A model generated the notes under the pieces. That model was not told where the DNA came from. It was given only the letters and a program-made list of their open reading frames with translations, and made no database searches. The position numbers and the translations under genes were made by a program. This document shows positions 6,110 to 62,883 of a stretch of 64,000 nt of DNA, in pieces (within the stretch, counting starts at the first letter, position 1; every line of letters starts with the position of its first letter). This stretch comes from a phage: sequence record PZ496581.1. One strand, written 5' to 3'.

Positions 6110-6345
6110 TGGACGATTTAATTCAAGCTATTAAATCAAACGACCTCGTTGCTACTCGAAAGTTTTTTGAAAGTGCAATGGCAGAAAAAACGGTTCGTTT
6201 GATTGAAGCACGCAAAGCAGAAATCGCTTCTCAATTTTTGATTGAAGGCGAAGAACCTGAAGAAGAAAAGAAAGCTAAAGCTTCGGAAGACGACGCTGAT
6301 GAAGGCGATGACGACGAAGACGAAGATGATGAGGACGATGAATAA
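6109..6345 (+). CDS. 67: Prohead core protein gp67 (acidic C-terminal tail)
   Basis: 78 aa ORF ending in a poly-D/E tail, start overlaps gene 20 stop; matches T4 gene 67 position and size. Confidence 0.85.
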
Positions 6346-23014: not shown

Positions 23015-24783
23015 AACCTGAAGAAATGAAATCCATGCGTAGAAATAAGGTCATTGCCGATAATAAACCACAAAAAGTAGCTGCAACAGCAGCTACCGAT
23101 TCATTAGAAGCATTGAATGACATTTCATCAAAACTAGACGATGTCCAAGCCGCGTCTGAACTCACATCACAAAGTGTAGAAGATAAAGGCAATGGAATTA
23201 TTGAATCAATTGGAGACTTAAAGAATTCGACAGATAATACTGCTGAAGGCACAGAGCTTATCGCAGAAGTTATTGAAAAACAAACTGAAGTCACTAAAAG
23301 TATAAACGAAGTTTCTAGTGCAATAAGCTCTAAGTTAGACCGATTAGCTACATTATTAGAGCAAAAATTACAAACATCTACCGCTATTCAAAATACAGGA
23401 GGCACCTCTCTTGAAGTAATTGAGAACGCAATACCTGTTAAAGTGGTTGAGAATGAAACTTCTGATGAGTTGTTTAAAGCATTCCCTACACCTGAAAAGA
23501 TTGATAATAAGCCAGACGAAGATTTCTTCCCGGCTCCGGTTCAAGAAAGTGCTAATTCTACTTCCGATTCTAAAGGTGGAATTAGCTTTAAATTGAGCGA
23601 TAAAATTGCAATGCTCACCAAAACAGTTCAAACCGGGTTTAATAAATCAATATCAATTTCAGACAGAATTGCTGGAATGCTTTTCAAATACACTATAACG
23701 GCTGCTATTGAAGCAGCAAAAATGGCCGCACTTATTCTTGGTATTGTTATCGGTATTGATTTATTGATAGTCCATTTCAAATATTGGACCGACAAGTTCA
23801 CTTCTGCCTGGGATTTATTTGATGAAAACTTTACTAAATTCTCTGATGAAGCTAAAGAGTGGGGTAAATTCTTAAGTGATATATTCACTTCTATTGACTC
23901 GATAAAACAATTGTGGGAAGCTGGAGACTGGGGTGGTTTAACCGTTGCTATTGTCAAAGGCGTAGGAACAGCATTAATGAACTTAGGTGAACTAATTCAA
24001 TTAGGAATGGCTAAACTCTCCGCGTCTATATTGCGTGCTATAGGTTTTGGTGATACCGCGGACGAAATAGAAGGACGTGCTTTGGAAGGATTCCAAGAAA
24101 CTACTGGGAACAAATTAAAGAAAGAAGACCAAGAGAAAGTCGCTAAATATCAAATGAAGCGTGACGATGGGGAATTAGGAACCGTTTCTAAAGGTCTTGA
24201 TATGTTACAACGCGGCAAAACATTCGTTACTAACTGGGTTCGTGGTAATGACAATAAAGAAGAGTTTAGTACAAGCGATGAGCGTGCTGCGGAATCAGCA
24301 AAATTAAAAGAGTTACCTGAAGAGGAGCGTAAAGAGGCGTATATAAAAGCTAATGAAACTCGTGCGGCACTGGTTAGATTTGAGGATTATATCGATAAAA
24401 TCGATATGACTAATCCGGAAAATGCTAAAAACGTCGAGAAGTCTTATGCTGATTTAAGTAAACTTATTAAAGACCCTGAACTTAATAAAACTCCTGTTGT
24501 TAAAAAGGAATTAGATGCTAGATTTGAAAAGCTAAATAATAAAATGGCTGAAGCCAAAAAGGCTCAGACAACAGTTAAGCCTGAATCTTCGTCTAAATCT
24601 CCGGAAGCAAAACAAGTTCAGTCAATAGAGAAAGGACGTGCTTCTGAATCTAAACAACAGCAACCGGTAGCGGCGATTAGTAACACAAATAATGTCGTCA
24701 AAAAGAATACCGTAGTCCAGAATATGACCCCTGTAACAAGTACAACGGCTCCTGGAATTTTCCATGCCACCGGTGTTAATTAA
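23011..24783 (+). CDS. 29: Baseplate hub / tail length determinator gp29
   Basis: 590 aa ORF; T4 gp29 is 590 aa. Confidence 0.93.
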   Translation: MKPEEMKSMRRNKVIADNKPQKVAATAATDSLEALNDISSKLDDVQAASELTSQSVEDKGNGIIESIGDLKNSTDNTAEGTELIAEVIEKQTEVTKSINEVSSAISSKLDRLATLLEQKLQTSTAIQNTGGTSLEVIENAIPVKVVENETSDELFKAFPTPEKIDNKPDEDFFPAPVQESANSTSDSKGGISFKLSDKIAMLTKTVQTGFNKSISISDRIAGMLFKYTITAAIEAAKMAALILGIVIGIDLLIVHFKYWTDKFTSAWDLFDENFTKFSDEAKEWGKFLSDIFTSIDSIKQLWEAGDWGGLTVAIVKGVGTALMNLGELIQLGMAKLSASILRAIGFGDTADEIEGRALEGFQETTGNKLKKEDQEKVAKYQMKRDDGELGTVSKGLDMLQRGKTFVTNWVRGNDNKEEFSTSDERAAESAKLKELPEEERKEAYIKANETRAALVRFEDYIDKIDMTNPENAKNVEKSYADLSKLIKDPELNKTPVVKKELDARFEKLNNKMAEAKKAQTTVKPESSSKSPEAKQVQSIEKGRASESKQQQPVAAISNTNNVVKKNTVVQNMTPVTSTTAPGIFHATGVN

Positions 24784-24791
24784 GGATTATT

Positions 24792-25901
24792 ATGATTAGT
24801 GTAAAAGAAATAGTAGTAGATGCAAAGGATTTAAATAAAGCAATCCCAGTCTCAGAAAGTGCTGGGCAAAGCACTAAAACCGAAACAACTACTAAAACTT
24901 ATGTTGCTCAATTTCCTACAGGAAGAGCAGCCGGAAATGACTCCACAGGAGACTTCCAGGTAACAGACCTTTATAAGAATGGATTATTATTTACCGCGTA
25001 CAATATGTCTGCACGCGATTCAGGATCCCTCAGGAATTTACGTCCGGCATACGCCGGGACTTCATCTAATGGTATCATATCAGATTTAACTGATAATGTG
25101 AAAGATGCAGTGACTAAATTCTCTAATGGGTTGCTTCCTGCCGGAGCTAATAAATCTACTATAAATAAAACTCCTGTTGCTAATATACTTTTGCCACGTT
25201 CCAAATCTGACGTTGATACAACTTCACATCGTTTTAATGATATCGGTGATAGCCTTATTACTAAAGGTGGAGGTACTGCTACGGGTGTTTTAAGTAACAT
25301 TGCTTCTACTGCAGTTTTTGGTGCATTAGATTCTATTACTCAAGGGCTTATGGCTGATAATAACGAACAGATTTATACGACTTCTCGTAGTATGTATGGC
25401 GGTGCTGAGAACCGTACTAAAGTCTTTACATGGGATTTAACTCCACGTTCAACTGAAGACCTTATGGCTATTATAAACATTTACCAGTATTTTAACTATT
25501 TCTCATATGGTGAGACCGGTAAATCACAGTACGCCCAAGAGATTAAAAGTTATTTAGACGAATGGTACCGTTCAACGTTTATTGAGCCTATGACGCCAGA
25601 TGATGCAGTAAAAAATAAGACATTGTTTGAAAAGATTACTGCGTCATTAACAAATGTATTAGTTGTAAGCAACCCTACAATTTGGATGGTTAAAAACTTT
25701 GGTTATACGTCTAAATTTGATGGATTAACTGACGTATTTGGTCCATGCCAAATTCAAAGCGTACGTTTTGATAAAACTCCAAATGGACAATTTAATGGTC
25801 TTGCTGTTGCTCCTAACTTACCATCAACATTTACGTTAGAGATAACAATGCGAGAAATTATTACATTAAACCGTTCTTCACTTTATGCGGGGACTTTCTA
25901 A
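24792..25901 (+). CDS. 48: Baseplate tail tube cap gp48
   Basis: 369 aa ORF; position between 29 and 54. Confidence 0.9.
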   Translation: MISVKEIVVDAKDLNKAIPVSESAGQSTKTETTTKTYVAQFPTGRAAGNDSTGDFQVTDLYKNGLLFTAYNMSARDSGSLRNLRPAYAGTSSNGIISDLTDNVKDAVTKFSNGLLPAGANKSTINKTPVANILLPRSKSDVDTTSHRFNDIGDSLITKGGGTATGVLSNIASTAVFGALDSITQGLMADNNEQIYTTSRSMYGGAENRTKVFTWDLTPRSTEDLMAIINIYQYFNYFSYGETGKSQYAQEIKSYLDEWYRSTFIEPMTPDDAVKNKTLFEKITASLTNVLVVSNPTIWMVKNFGYTSKFDGLTDVFGPCQIQSVRFDKTPNGQFNGLAVAPNLPSTFTLEITMREIITLNRSSLYAGTF

Positions 25902-40544: not shown

Positions 40545-40825
40545 TTTTCCTCTTTTAAACCACTACGATAATAACATAACATAGTCTTCTGGTCATGTAT
40601 ATATCTTTTTACGTCGTTTAACCAGATACGAAATTCTTGAGAGTCTTCAAATGGCATTCCAACCCACGGATTACCATCAATAACCTTTACTTGCCATTTC
40701 TGGTTATATTCAACAATAGATTCTGGCCATGGCGGATGTAAAGTTTCTTTAGGGCTTAAGGGCACATCCTGGGCACATCCAGCCAAAATACCAATAGATA
40801 ATACAACTGCGGTTAATTTAATCAT
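40535..40825 (-). CDS. Outer-membrane spanin (o-spanin lipoprotein)
   Basis: 96 aa ORF with lipoprotein signal peptide and lipobox (..LSIGILAGC..), further Cys residues; 4 nt overlap with the upstream i-spanin; matches the T4 pseT.3/pseT.2 spanin arrangement. Confidence 0.75.
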   Translation of the reverse strand: MIKLTAVVLSIGILAGCAQDVPLSPKETLHPPWPESIVEYNQKWQVKVIDGNPWVGMPFEDSQEFRIWLNDVKRYIHDQKTMLCYYRSGLKEEKCQ

Positions 40826-50696: not shown

Positions 50697-51614
50697 TTAT
50701 AGACCAGCTAACAGGTCATCGAGGTCGCCATCATCAGAGGATGAGGTAGAGCTCATGAAGTCATCTTCAGTTTTTGCAGAACTAAAGGCTTCCATGTCTT
50801 TATCAAAATCGTCAAGGTCAGAAGCAACTTTATCTGCAACAGAAGCTGCTGCGGCTGCTGCACCACCAAGAGCGGCAGTACCAAGAGCGGCAGTACCAAG
50901 AACCTTAGCGAAAGATTCATTTAATTTTTCAAAGGATTTGAACTGGTCTTTAGCCGTCAAAGTAGTAAGGTCTACCATCTGGTCATATAGTTCTTTCTGG
51001 AATGCTTCGTCATTAATACGAGGAATTTCAGATTGACCCAAGAATTTAGATTCGTCATAGTTGCTAAAACCTGAAACCTGCTTAGCTTTCAGAACGAAGT
51101 TAGCACCTTCAAACGGACAAGTAACATCAACTGGAGTTTCACCCATTTCGGTATCAACAGCAATCATTGCATTGATTTTGTCCCAAATCTTTTTACCGAA
51201 ACGATATTTAAATACTTTACCTTCGTTATCTGGAGCTTGAGGGTCTTTAACAACCAGAATATTAGCCCAATAAGAAGTTTTACGTTTCAGTTGAGAATAT
51301 TCATTTTTGTTGGTATTGTACAGGTCATTTTTACTAATGTACTGACATACAGGACAAGAGTCATAATCACCATGTGTAGAAGAGCAATTTTCAATATACC
51401 ATTTACCATTTTTCTTGAAACCGTGGTTAACAAGAATTGCAAATGGTAGTGCATCATCAGTTTTTGCTGGCAAGAAACGAATTACCGCTTGACCATTACC
51501 GGATGCATCTAGCTTCAGCTTCCATTCGCCTTTATCTTCTGAAGAGAAACCTTTGTTACCATTCAGTTTAGCCATTTGAGCAGCGAGGTCAGCAGTAGAT
51601 TTACGTTTAAACAT
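50697..51614 (-). CDS. 32: Single-stranded DNA-binding protein gp32
   Basis: 305 aa ORF near-identical to T4 gp32 ([35 protein letters not shown]..; zinc site C..H..C..C); acidic C-terminus. Confidence 0.96.
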
Positions 51615-51652
51615 GGATTATTACCTTTTATTTAGATTATTTAATTTATTTA
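51615..51652 (-). promoter_or_regulatory. Gene 32 mRNA leader, AU-rich translational operator region
   Basis: Minus-strand leader UAAAUAAAUUAAAUAAUCUAAAUAAAAGGUAAUAAUCC-AUG with repeated UAAA/UUAAA elements, as in the known gp32 autoregulatory site. Confidence 0.6.
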
Positions 51653-51690
51653 CAGTTGGTTGCTACGACACTAGTTGGTTGCTACGACAC
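51653..51690 (-). repeat. 19 bp tandem direct repeat in the gene 32 leader
   Basis: cagttggttgctacgacac / tagttggttgctacgacac, two adjacent copies immediately 5' of the AU-rich operator. Confidence 0.8.
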
Positions 51691-51714
51691 TTATACCTCG
51701 TAGCTGGTATGATT

Positions 51715-51722
51715 TATTTATA
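51715..51722 (-). promoter_or_regulatory. Late promoter (minus-strand TATAAATA) upstream of gene 32
   Basis: + strand tatttata; a possible MotA-box-like element (AAGCTTTA, one mismatch) with -10 TAAAAT lies further upstream at about 51724-51750. Confidence 0.55.
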
Positions 51723-51751
51723 AAGTAATTTTAACACACAAGAAATAAAGC

Positions 51752-52405
51752 TTAATACTTACATGATTTGATTGTTTCTATGAACAATTTCTTAGCAGCA
51801 TTTCCATCGATTTGAAGTATTTTTCGATATGCCTTTAATTTGGTAGAATAATTTTGCCAGACTAAATTATCGGTGAGTTCGTCGTGCTTATCTATAATAT
51901 TCAAAAACGAGTCCAACAATAAGAAAGTTTCAAATGAAATTATATTGCTTTGTAGCAATTTAAATATGTAGCTCGACTGAACGTTGTTATTATAATCAAA
52001 TATCTCTTGAAGCGCACTAACTTCAACTTTCTTACTGAAATAGTAGATGTTACGTACGTCTTCAGCAAACGTCTCTTTAGCTTGTTTTAGTCGTCCAATA
52101 TATTCCCTATAGAAAACTAATGCATCAGCGTCTGATATCTCACCAATCCATGCGTCTTGGTTAGCAACTAAGTTGCTTATGAATATCAAGGTGAGTTCCT
52201 TCAATTTATATTTCTCTGATAGTTTTTCAAAGAAATATTTATCTCGGCGTTTTTGATACGCATTATCCGAAACACGCATGCACCAGTTATATTTGATTAC
52301 GTCATACCGACCACCAAAGTGGTTTTTGCACATCAAGTATAGTTTATATACTGATTTACCGTTAATATAACGTTCTCCGTCAGGAGGCATACGTATTTTA
52401 ATCAT
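51752..52405 (-). CDS. 59: Helicase loader gp59
   Basis: 217 aa ORF near-identical to T4 gp59 (MIK.RMP..GERYI.GKSVYKLYLM.K.H..G.YDVIKYNWCMRVSD.AYQKRRDKYFF.KLSEKYKLKEL..). Confidence 0.95.
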   Translation of the reverse strand: MIKIRMPPDGERYINGKSVYKLYLMCKNHFGGRYDVIKYNWCMRVSDNAYQKRRDKYFFEKLSEKYKLKELTLIFISNLVANQDAWIGEISDADALVFYREYIGRLKQAKETFAEDVRNIYYFSKKVEVSALQEIFDYNNNVQSSYIFKLLQSNIISFETFLLLDSFLNIIDKHDELTDNLVWQNYSTKLKAYRKILQIDGNAAKKLFIETIKSCKY

Positions 52406-52740
52406 AATAAGAAATCTAACGTATTAGTTTTTTCACCACGAGCAACTGATGGGCGAAGCATGTTTTCGTCAATTGCTTCGCTTGTAATTTTTTCAACAAT
52501 TCCTGTAGGAATAAATTTAGCAAATTGTGTTTCTGGAATAGAATTTTCTTCCAAGAAAGCAGTTGTTGCTTCTAAATAAGACATACCAAATTGTTCAACC
52601 ATGGATTCGATAATGAATCCGTTTTCTTGTCGGTCAAGCAATTTAGCGATATCATCTTTATCGTGTTTTACTGCTAATTCTTGTTCAGATAAACCGGCCT
52701 CATCAACCGGTTTAATATCACTTAGTGAAAACTGTGTCAT
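52402..52740 (-). CDS. 33: Late transcription accessory protein gp33
   Basis: 112 aa ORF near-identical to T4 gp33 (..FSLSDI....GLSE.ELAV.HDKDDI.KLLD.QENGFIIE.MVE.FGMSYLEATTAFLEENSIPETQFAKFIP..). Confidence 0.95.
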   Translation of the reverse strand: MTQFSLSDIKPVDEAGLSEQELAVKHDKDDIAKLLDRQENGFIIESMVEQFGMSYLEATTAFLEENSIPETQFAKFIPTGIVEKITSEAIDENMLRPSVARGEKTNTLDFLL

Positions 52741-59760: not shown

Positions 59761-62700
59761 ATGGCTACATTAAAACAGATACAATTTAAAAGAAGCAAAG
59801 TGGCAGGAGTTAATCCTACTGCAGCACAATTAGCCGAAGGCGAATTAGCGATAAACTTAAAAGATCGAACTCTTTTTACTAAAGATGACCTCGGTAATAT
59901 TATTAGCCTAGGCTTTGCTAAGGGCGGGGATATTAACGGTAATGTAACTCAAAATGGTGATTATTTACAAAACGGCACATATAATCTTAATGGAAATCAG
60001 TTTGTTTATGCAGGAAAATATATTGAATTTTTACCTAAAATAGCTGGTAATGGCGCTTGGGCAAATCAACACCTAAATAAAGCTCCTATCTTTACAGATT
60101 TAAGTTCAACTACTTCTGTTTCAGAATACCATCCGCTGATTAAACAACGCTATAAAGATGGAACTTTTTCTGCTGGTACATTAGTAAACGAAGGTAGTTT
60201 TAAATTCCATTATATTGATGAAACCGGGACTTCAAAATACTGGACTTTTAATAGAAATGGTAATTTCATCGTAGATTCTGGCAATATTGAAGTTCGTGCC
60301 GGTAATATTTCTGCTTCAGGCAATATAAATTCAGCTACTGGGCGAGTTTCGGCTCCTCGTGTCATTACAAAAAATATTAATTTAAGTACAAAGACTTTTA
60401 TTCCTAATAACGACGCCGGGTATGATTTAGTTTCTTTGCCTACTTGGATTTATAATCCGCCGGCAGATGGTTCTGACCGTAATACAAATGGTCTTAACTA
60501 CATTCGTAAGATGAGAGCTTCAAATACTTCTAGTATTTTCCATGAAATAGTTGATTGCCGTTCAGGAAAGCCACAAGAAATTTCTTGGTGGACAGGTGTA
60601 GGCCCGGAATCTTTCCAATGGGCGTTTGATACCTCCGGTCGTATTACTGCAGGTAAATCGATTTCGGTAGGTCTTCCTGATAATGGTACAAATGGACGTT
60701 ATCCTTTAGATTCTGCGATTTCTATAGGTATTGCAATTGGTGATAACGACACCGGTATTAAATGGGTCCGCGACGGTGTTATTGATTTCATGGCTAACGG
60801 TATTTCATCCGCTACCATTTTGAATAACGGTATTAACAGCACTAAGAAATTGATGGTCGGTTATAGCCGCGATTCTGGTACTACTTGGGATTACCCAAAT
60901 AACAACCAAGCAATGTTTACTGCGCGTACCGATGTTGATGGTAATAATAACGGCGATGGGCAAACTCATATCGGTTATAGCAGCAATGCCAAGATGTATC
61001 ACTATTTCCGTGGTACAGGTCGTATGTCCGTTAGTATGGACGATGGACTTCTTGTTGAGCCTGGCATTTTAGATATTAAAACCGGTTCTAATAGCGTTGC
61101 TATTAGAGCAGACGGAACAATTAACTCCACCCAACGTATTTCAATGCGTACGGGCTTGTTTTTAAATGGTGATGATAATACCAATGCTTTGTCATTTAAA
61201 GCGCCTACAGGTGTTGACGGGACAAAAACCATTAACTGGGATGCAGGTACTCGTAATGGTCAGAATAAAAATACTGTAACCATTAAAGCATGGGGTAACT
61301 CATTTAACGCTGAAAAGGGTAATAGAGAAACTGTATTTGAAGTATCAGATTCACAAGGTTATTATTTTTATGCTCAACGTACCAACCCGGCTTCTGGTGA
61401 AACAGTAGGTCCGGTTAACTTTAAATTTAACGGAACTGTCGAAACAGGCCGTATCATAGGCCTTGGTAATATAAGTGCCTCCGGTACAGGTTCTTTTGGT
61501 GGCAATGTTACTATGTCTAACGGTTTGTTTGTCCAAGGTGGTTCTTCTATTACTGGACAAGTTAAAATTGGTGGAACAGCTGATGCATTAAGAATTTGGA
61601 ATGCTGAATACGGGGCTATTTTCCGTAGTTCTGAAGATAAGCTTTATATTATTCCAACTCCACAGAATGCTGGTGAATCAGGTGGTATTTCTAATTTACG
61701 TCCGTTCTATATTACATTAAGTACCGGTAAAGTTTCTATGGATCATGATGTAGATATCGGCGGCGGTAGATTTAAAGTAGAAGCGGCTGGAACTACGGCT
61801 GGTCAACGCATAACAGTAAATATGGCATCAGATGCTATTAGAATAAATGCTCCAACACAAGAGTCTTCTAACTTCATTCAAGGACGTAAAGCAGATGTTC
61901 CGAAATGGTATTTAGGTATTGGCGATGGCGGCAACGTCGTTCGTATGCACAGCTACACATATTCACATGGTATTGCATTAAACTCTGATTCTGTCGATAT
62001 TACTAAACCATTAAAAGTTGGTAATGCTCAATTCGGTACTGATGGTAATATTACTGGCGGTTCTGGTAATTTTGCTAACTTGAATACCACAATAAATAAC
62101 CTTAAGACGGATATTGTCTCGAGTTACCCAATTGGTGCTCCGATTCCTTGGCCTACTGATACACCTCCTGAAGGTTATGCCATAATGGAAGGTCAAACAT
62201 TTGATGTTGGCTTGTATCCTAAGTTAGCTGCGGTGTATCCTTCCGGCGCTCTGCCTGATATGCGTGGTCAAACTATCAAGGGTAAACCATCTGGGCGTGC
62301 TGTATTAAGTACAGAAGCAGATGGTGTTAAGTCACATAGCCATAGTGCAAGTGCATCAAGCACAGATTTGGGTACTAAAAACACATCAAGTTTTGATTAT
62401 GGTACTAAAACATCTTCAAGCTTTGATTATGGTACTAAGACCAGTAATACCACTGGTGACCATAACCATACAGTAAGCGGTACCACTGACGCAGCAGGTG
62501 ACCACCAGCACTCACAGACCGGTCCAAGGGGTCCTAATAATCAACCAACAGGAATATATCCTAATGGATCTACTCAAATTAGCGGAACCCTGGTTGTTGG
62601 TTTTGGCCTAAGCAACGGTGTTGTGCCTGGTACAAGCCAATATATTGCAAAGTCATCGACAGAAGGTAACCATACACACTCTTGGTCTGGTACTACTAGC

Positions 62701-62883
62701 TCTACGGGTAACCATGCCCATACCGTTGGTATTGGTGCCCATACACATACTGTAGGTATTGGTGCCCACTCTCATTCGGTAGCGATTGGTTCTCATGGTC
62801 ATACAATAACTGTAAATGCCACAGGAAATACAGAAAACACAGTTAAAAACGTTGCTTTTAACTATATCGTTCGTTTAGCATAA
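59761..62883 (+). CDS. 37: Long tail fibre distal subunit gp37 (receptor-binding tip with His boxes)
   Basis: 1040 aa ORF; C-terminal region with GxHxH repeats ([44 protein letters not shown]) and conserved C-terminus ..[15 protein letters not shown] as in T4 gp37. Confidence 0.95.
62371..62440 (+). repeat. 30 bp tandem repeat (about 2.3 copies) within the gp37 tip region
   Basis: ggtactaaaaacacatcaagttttgattat / ggtactaaaacatcttcaagctttgattat / ggtactaaga.., encoding [24 protein letters not shown]. Confidence 0.8.

Follow-up and report, generated by a model that had tools for sequence, protein, structure and literature searches.

A private 19-nt tandem duplication within the gene 32 operator pseudoknot of the Mosigvirus genome PZ496581.1

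The DNA analysed here, referred to as the window, is the whole 64,000-nt stretch of the phage sequence record PZ496581.1. By nucleotide similarity the phage is a Mosigvirus (RB69 group), with approximately 97 % identity over 12 kb to 348Ecol098PP, G2469 and others. The locus of interest is the intergenic leader of 137 nt between gene 59 and gene 32. The gene 32 operator is a classic case of a protein that senses its own free concentration on its mRNA, where a pseudoknot adjoins a lattice for cooperative binding. The 305-aa gp32 open reading frame lies directly downstream of the leader, and in related contigs the homologue of this gene has the Pfam domain PF08804 (gp32).

Along the mRNA the leader of PZ496581.1 reads AUACC-A-GCUACGA-GGUAU-AAGUG-UCGUAGC-AACCAACU, then a second AGUG-UCGUAGC-AACCAACU, and then the AU-rich tract, the Shine-Dalgarno (SD) sequence and the AUG (Table 1). 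The first-pass annotation, made from the letters alone, had described an AU-rich leader with UAAA/UUAAA elements and two tandem 19 bp copies 5' of that tract. The elements were found as described and the two copies were confirmed by TRF and by exact matching; the repeat itself stood, with its position corrected by one base from 51653-51690 to 51654-51691. The upper bound given in that annotation, 51722, is the 5' end of the TATAAATA motif.

Table 1 Features of the gene 59-gene 32 region of PZ496581.1, listed in the order of the mRNA (positions in the window)
Feature	Position	Strand	Basis or remark
Gene 59	51752-52405		ORF list; upstream of gene 32
Late-promoter motif TATAAATA, T4-type (putative)	51715-51722	-	exact match; 4 nt upstream of the pseudoknot
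Pseudoknot stem 1, 5' strand AUACC	51706-51710	-	pairs with GGUAU; two compensatory pairs vs T2/T4
Pseudoknot loop 1, single A	51705	-	invariant A in the T4, T2 and RB69 classes
Pseudoknot stem 2, 5' strand GCUACGA	51698-51704	-	complements UCGUAGC; one compensatory U-A to C-G change vs T4/T2
Pseudoknot stem 1, 3' strand GGUAU	51693-51697	-	contains the equivalent of RB69 G(-61)
Pseudoknot loop 2, AAGUG	51688-51692	-	last 4 nt fall in duplication copy 1
Duplication copy 1, mRNA-proximal: AGUG + UCGUAGC + AACCAACU	51673-51691	-	TRF, exact match
Stem 2, 3' strand UCGUAGC, copy 1	51681-51687	-	within duplication copy 1
AACCAACU linker, copy 1	51673-51680	-	8 nt
Duplication copy 2, extra 19 nt: AGUG + UCGUAGC + AACCAACU	51654-51672	-	missing in all relatives compared
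Spare stem-2 arm UCGUAGC, copy 2	51662-51668	-	within duplication copy 2
AU-rich operator tract GUAAAUAAAUUAAAUAAUCUAAAUAAA with UAAA/UUAAA elements	51627-51653	-	sequence
Shine-Dalgarno AGGU	51623-51626	-	8-nt spacer to AUG
Gene 32 start AUG	51612-51614	-	ORF
Gene 32 (gp32, single-stranded-DNA-binding protein, 305 aa)	50697-51614	-	ORF
Second exact tandem repeat, 15-nt unit x2.5 (relatives x1.5), in frame	50865-50901	-	TRF

The TATAAATA motif upstream of the transcript, which from the T4 late-promoter consensus we take to be a late promoter, is kept at the same place in every Mosigvirus leader compared and is enriched in the window (20 matches observed against 7.6 expected). A sigma-70-like site with an extended -10 (ACGACA-18-TGgTATGAT) was also noticed on the + strand at 51684-51713, antisense to the gene 32 leader. 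It was considered as a possible product of the duplication and rejected, since its -35 sits in the copy that is also present in single-copy relatives.

TRF reported the 19-nt unit AGTTGGTTGCTACGACACT at 51654-51691 (+ strand coordinates) with a period of 19, 2.0 copies and 100 % match. The repeat is exactly 38 nt long, head-to-tail and without a partial third copy. With up to 3 mismatches permitted, AGTTGGTTGCTACGACACT was found at only these two adjoining sites in 64 kb, the chance expectation estimated from 100 dinucleotide shuffles being 0.01. The segment that is doubled starts 4 nt before the end of loop 2, runs through the complete 3' strand of stem 2 (UCGUAGC) and ends with the 8-nt linker. 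An ACTAGT palindrome (SpeI site) arises at the junction of the two copies (51670-51675), probably by coincidence.

The 19-nt duplication sits inside the known T4-type translational operator of gene 32. The pseudoknot is of the H-type, its two stems having 4-5 bp and 7 bp and its loop 1 a single nucleotide, and between it and the ribosome-binding site lies an unstructured AU-rich tract (MFE of 0 kcal/mol for the 39 nt of 51615-51653). In folding of the single-copy leader the pair probability of stem 2 was 0.99-1.0. When 12 pairs were scored across the T4, T2-type PP01 and RB69-type leaders, 35 of the 36 cells (97 %) were standard pairs. Both partners differ between the classes at three pairs, of which two belong to stem 1 and the third, U-A to C-G, to stem 2, and the pairing fell to 22-53 % once the 3' partners were slid by 1-3 columns. 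The alignment scored was made without loop 2; MAFFT, run on the full pseudoknot, had placed gaps wrongly in stem 1 (3' strand). The homology of the pseudoknot and the covariation of its pairs are thereby demonstrated at the sequence level. An Rfam scan of 51400-51900 at E <= 10 returned no relevant family, its sole match being a chance miRNA. In the T4-type operator each pseudoknot strand is expected once, approximately 8 nt from the AU-rich tract; here there are two copies of the linker and of the 3' strand of stem 2, so the leader is a variant of that operator. The pseudoknot which the first-pass annotation mentioned at this position in T4 does exist there, and it is a part of it, the 3' strand of stem 2, that the duplication copies.

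The gene 32 operator of RB69 was studied by Borjac-Natour, Petrov & Karam 2004 (PMC535899). Probing of the RB69 leader with DMS, DEPC and RNase V1 revealed an unstructured region from A(-1) to A(-45) and a structured segment upstream of it, and the RB69 mRNA is repressed by RB69 gp32 (PMC535899). The footprint of RB69 gp32 on this RNA extends from U(-14) to G(-61), whereas T4 gp32 gave strong protection only from C(-42) to G(-61) (PMC535899). Counted as in RB69, A(-45) immediately follows UCGUAGC and G(-61) falls within GGUAU, so the pairing scheme of Table 1 agrees exactly with the boundaries found by experiment. The 19 nt that are duplicated match positions -56 to -38 of RB69, which include 15 of the 20 nt in the core footprint of T4 gp32, C(-42) to G(-61). 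The pseudoknot of RB69 (CAUACCAGCUACGAGGUAUAAGUGUCGUAGC) is identical to that of PZ496581.1, as are its AACCAACU linker, the beginning of its AU-rich tract and its gene order, 59 then 32. RB69 differs in having one copy of AGUGUCGUAGCAACCAACU instead of two, in the sequence adjoining the SD (AAAAGGUAAUAAUCC in RB69 against AAAGGUAAAUAUA in PZ496581.1) and in its gp32, which has 299 aa and a single LGTAA in comparison to 305 aa. By analogy with the RB69 RNA, which has the same pseudoknot sequence, the operator of PZ496581.1 would be expected to be bound and repressed by gp32.

The autoregulatory site of T4 gene 32 is the subject of McPheeters, Stormo & Gold 1988 and Shamoo et al. 1993 (both as summarised in the review PMC3014915), and according to that review gp32 nucleates at the pseudoknot of the T4 operator and then spreads cooperatively over the unstructured lattice. 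The gene 32 pseudoknot has two coaxially stacked stems separated by two loops (PMC3014915). T4 has the same architecture as PZ496581.1, an H-type pseudoknot followed by an AU-rich lattice (UUAAA/UAAA repeats) that extends over the ribosome-binding site, but its stem 2 is GCUAUGA/UCAUAGC, its stem 1 is UGCC/GGUA with a G-U pair, each is present in a single copy, and the 5' part of the pseudoknot overlaps segG, located between genes 59 and 32. For the T2/T6 gene 32 mRNA pseudoknot an NMR structure exists (Holland et al. 1999, PDB 2TPK, as cited in PMC3014915). The T2-type sequence of PP01 implies a single nucleotide in loop 1 and 7 bp in stem 2, and it aligns pair for pair with that of PZ496581.1. 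The NMR structure of T2 reportedly also has a 1-nt loop 1, in agreement with the loop found here. Loop 2 differs, with 7 nt (UACAUCG) in T2 and 5 nt in PZ496581.1, or 24 nt if the distal arm is used (see below). The Shigella phage sb1 (PQ666539.1) has a T2-type pseudoknot with a mismatch in stem 2 (UCAUAUC), and its gene 32 is interrupted in frame by a stop at about codon 9, the annotated CDS beginning at an ATG further downstream; either sequencing error or a damaged gene 32 accounts for the two.

The first-pass annotation had allowed that T4 itself might carry both copies, in which case they would be nothing other than the conserved pseudoknot sequence. This idea can be dismissed with near certainty. 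T4, the T2-type phage PP01, RB69 and all Mosigvirus relatives compared are single-copy, T4, T2-type and RB69 leaders have one UCAUAGC or UCGUAGC arm, and the pseudoknot requires just one arm. In full, a single copy was found in T4, PP01, PhAPEC2, HX01, LNA2, JK45, mogra, SHSML-52-1, p000y, NHEP10, G2469, FL31 and RB69, and in four further T4/T2-type or unclassified phages with the gene 32 pseudoknot. The leader of JK45 is that of PZ496581.1 minus 19 nt and otherwise identical. The leader of the Dhakavirus JS10 has no such pseudoknot.

The search for another carrier was extended to large collections. With a 241-nt BLAST query against 50,697 phage records, the best 60 of 215 full-length matches spanned 219-236 nt. 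With an 86-nt query centred on the repeat, the best 25 full-coverage matches in the same 50,697 records spanned 67-68 nt and came in two pieces, which indicates a single copy aligned twice, since a second carrier would come out on top with one uninterrupted 86-nt match. The 21-mer GCAACCAACTAGTGTCGTAGC, which spans the junction between the copies, was not found in IMG/VR, in JGI metagenome contigs or in 185,579 GTDB genomes. A looser pattern for duplication of the stem-2 arm gave nothing in IMG/VR and two unrelated chance matches across the metagenome and GTDB sets. All ten Logan and ENA contigs with a gp59 identical to that of PZ496581.1 had one arm each. No tandem repeat of at least 11 nt was present in 80 other IMG/VR gene 32 leaders, which had only AU-rich repeats of 8-10 nt, and the phrase "tandem duplication" occurs in none of the 15 papers compared, out of 31 matched in a literature search on gene 32, the pseudoknot and tandem duplication. 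The duplication is thus real in the PZ496581.1 sequence and private to it. At the gene 32 locus PZ496581.1 differs from its nearest relative by 21 substitutions in 1.8 kb, which speaks for a natural, diverged lineage and not for one derived from a sequenced stock.

Smaller tandem units do vary in these leaders. The AU-rich tract of Mosigvirus leaders varies by whole 9-nt units, with one to three copies of UAAAUAAUC and one or two of AAAUUAAAU, and the sequence adjoining the SD varies too; the pseudoknot is identical in all of the leaders compared (L001-L012 and L104-L113). The variation in 9-nt units and the 19-nt event affect the same leader and are of the same type, a small exact tandem expansion, but the 9-nt changes recur in several genomes and fall in the unstructured lattice, whereas the 19-nt event is unique and touches the pseudoknot. 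In five T4-like genomes from IMG/VR belonging to other genera (L029, L032, L035, L036 and L037) the gene 32 leader carries an exact 10-nt tandem repeat, two copies of AAAAACUGUA, at about -41 to -46 from the gene 32 AUG; this may be the version of the operator repeats in those genera.

Four other tandem repeats were noted in the window: 6289-6341 (21 nt x2.5), 40760-40780 (11 nt x1.9), 62371-62438 (30 nt x2.3) and 62712-62790 (27 nt x2.7). The last three are common to 348Ecol098PP without an alignment indel, and the first lies outside the aligned region.

A second duplication was found in the gp32 coding sequence itself (Table 1). It adds an extra LGTAA within residues 239-250, part of the linker that joins the DNA-binding core of gp32 to its acidic C-terminal tail, and the PZ496581.1 protein is that of 348Ecol098PP with five inserted residues and otherwise identical. 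The best of 396 matching phage records spanned 196 of 211 nt and were otherwise identical, which corresponds to 1.5 copies without the 15 nt; the 15-nt duplication is private among these 396 records and the 10 contigs with identical gp59. An exact look-up of the 305-aa gp32 sequence found it not on record. A protein word-index search with an 83-aa C-terminal fragment of gp32 gave 4 candidates, none of them scored, in a collection where clustering at 90 % would mask a 5-residue insertion. The 15-nt duplication has 7-8 nt of microhomology. The 19-nt and 15-nt events are the only tandem-duplication indels in the 35-48 kb aligned to two relatives, and both fall within the gene 32 locus of approximately 1.05 kb, about 770 nt apart, with a post hoc chance of approximately 2 %.

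The 5' strand of stem 2, GCUACGA, has two identical partners in the duplicated leader, so two registers of the pseudoknot would be possible. The expected major form uses the proximal arm, which would be transcribed first and close a 5-nt loop 2 to give the native RB69-type H-type pseudoknot. The extra 19 nt would then remain single-stranded, and the run from the pseudoknot to the AUG lengthens from 47 nt in the single-copy leader to 66 nt. In the expected minor form the distal arm would be paired and the native spacing to the AU-rich tract kept, at the cost of a loop 2 of 24 nt. In either register gp32 would nucleate at the junction of the pseudoknot and the single strand and spread cooperatively over the ribosome-binding site, so that autoregulation would be kept and the set-point would shift modestly at most.

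Folding was performed with ViennaRNA, for which pseudoknots are outside the model. The first-pass annotation had supposed that the duplication could alter the pseudoknot, and it proposed a comparison of the single-copy and duplicated leaders. In the nested ensemble of the duplicated leader alone, stem 2 formed the native pairing with the proximal arm in 85 % and the alternative pairing with the distal arm in 15 %, a difference of 1.1 kcal/mol. Lengthening of loop 2 from 5 to 24 nt carries a penalty of approximately 1.7 kcal/mol by a Jacobson-Stockmayer loop-entropy estimate. From these two values the native pseudoknot with the proximal arm is predicted to be favoured approximately 6-15 to 1, and since this arm is transcribed first the proximal register would be favoured kinetically as well as thermodynamically. 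Copy 2 of the duplication alone was unstructured (MFE of 0). Folding with 35 nt of coding sequence was tried and set aside in favour of the leader alone, because long-range pairs with the coding region differed between the constructs and were judged to be prediction noise. Nested folding paired UACC (51706-51709) of the stem 1 5' strand with GGUA of the SD (51622-51625), whether the leader had one copy or two; in this model the pairing would be a possible SD-occluding alternative to stem 1.

The effect on the set-point, which the first-pass annotation had suggested might change, was estimated with a finite-lattice model of cooperative binding. For gp32 a site size of 7 and a cooperativity of 1000 were used, and a nucleation bonus of 1-1000 was allowed next to the pseudoknot. 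In this toy model, which assumes uniform affinity and ignores sequence preference, the free gp32 required for half-occupancy of the SD changes in the duplicated leader by a factor of 0.86-1.17. The change in the repression set-point is probably small, below 20 % as modelled.

We consider it reasonably probable that the 19-nt repeat is a recent private tandem duplication within the operator pseudoknot, produced probably by replication slippage or unequal exchange, with autoregulation retained and most likely near-neutral in effect. The small change predicted for the set-point is the reason for judging it a recent, near-neutral slippage allele. As expected of such an allele, the copies are exact, head-to-tail and missing in close relatives, and the 9-nt units of the leaders compared show that the gene 32 leader is prone to small tandem indels. 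A short direct repeat at the segment ends, also expected, is missing: no microhomology is present at the ends of the 19-nt duplication, and the flanking bases in the mRNA differ (A before, G after). Simple slippage usually makes use of flanking microhomology, which counts against it for the 19-nt event. The full conservation of the pseudoknot in the other Mosigvirus leaders compared implies a strong constraint, which might count against near-neutrality, and the second private duplication 770 nt away gives a hint of selection or of a common cause instead of a chance neutral event. If the operator and LGTAA linker duplications were an adaptive, co-selected pair, one change would offset the other by adjusting autoregulation or RNA binding, or the two would act in the same direction on the supply or activity of gp32. 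The privacy of both duplications to PZ496581.1, the reading frame kept by the coding one and the clustering of the only two such indels in one locus fit this idea, and it would agree with the co-divergence of the gp32 C-terminal domain and the mRNA target between T4 and RB69 that was raised as a possibility in PMC535899. The sample is nevertheless one genome and the statistic post hoc, a small deletion in the C-terminal segment of T4 gp32 leaves autogenous control unchanged (PMC535899), the lattice model gives a negligible operator effect, and the 15-nt event, with an 8-nt microhomology, could be an independent slippage. On balance we regard co-selection as unlikely.

Two unusual exact tandem duplications in one gene, a gp32 whose exact sequence is not on record and an operator duplication known from a single sequence only are what a sequencing or assembly artefact could leave, or a minority variant fixed in the consensus and missing from the phage population. 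Against this, the coding duplication keeps the reading frame, the neighbouring genes are intact, the other tandem repeats in the aligned region are common to relatives and scattered anomalous indels are absent. Moreover, assemblers tend to collapse exact tandem copies rather than create them, and we give an artefact a low probability. A functional bistable pseudoknot, in which the register would switch, for example with temperature or the load of gp32, so that the response is graded or two-state, appears very doubtful to us. With a gap of only 1.1-1.7 kcal/mol between the registers, some occupancy of each is to be expected, and the duplicated unit covers most of the T4 gp32 core footprint on RB69 RNA; but a switch of this kind finds no conservation, since no relative compared carries the duplication and none of the 80 other gene 32 leaders has a tandem repeat of 11 nt or longer, no sign of selection for switching was seen, and the proximal register would be the favoured one on both counts given above.

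A recent and near-neutral duplication would mean that 19 additional nucleotides can be accommodated by the operator at the junction where gp32 nucleates, despite a pseudoknot sequence that is invariant across the genus. Were the pair co-selected, nature would have provided a case in which an autoregulatory RNA target changed together with the modulatory domain of its repressor. The duplicated allele offers a natural test of how the geometry of pseudoknot and lattice sets the gp32 threshold: the arm that is paired decides between the native pseudoknot and the native spacing of pseudoknot to lattice, and the test comes with a matched change in the gp32 linker. The finding is a modest one and concerns one isolate. 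What is new is a private duplication within the well-known gene 32 operator, and not a new system; the pseudoknot and the operator were already known.

A further difference from the nearest relative was seen on the other side of gene 59. In 348Ecol098PP a group I intron-type homing endonuclease gene (24379-25062) lies between genes 59 and 33; PZ496581.1 lacks it, the corresponding site being at about 52391-52406.
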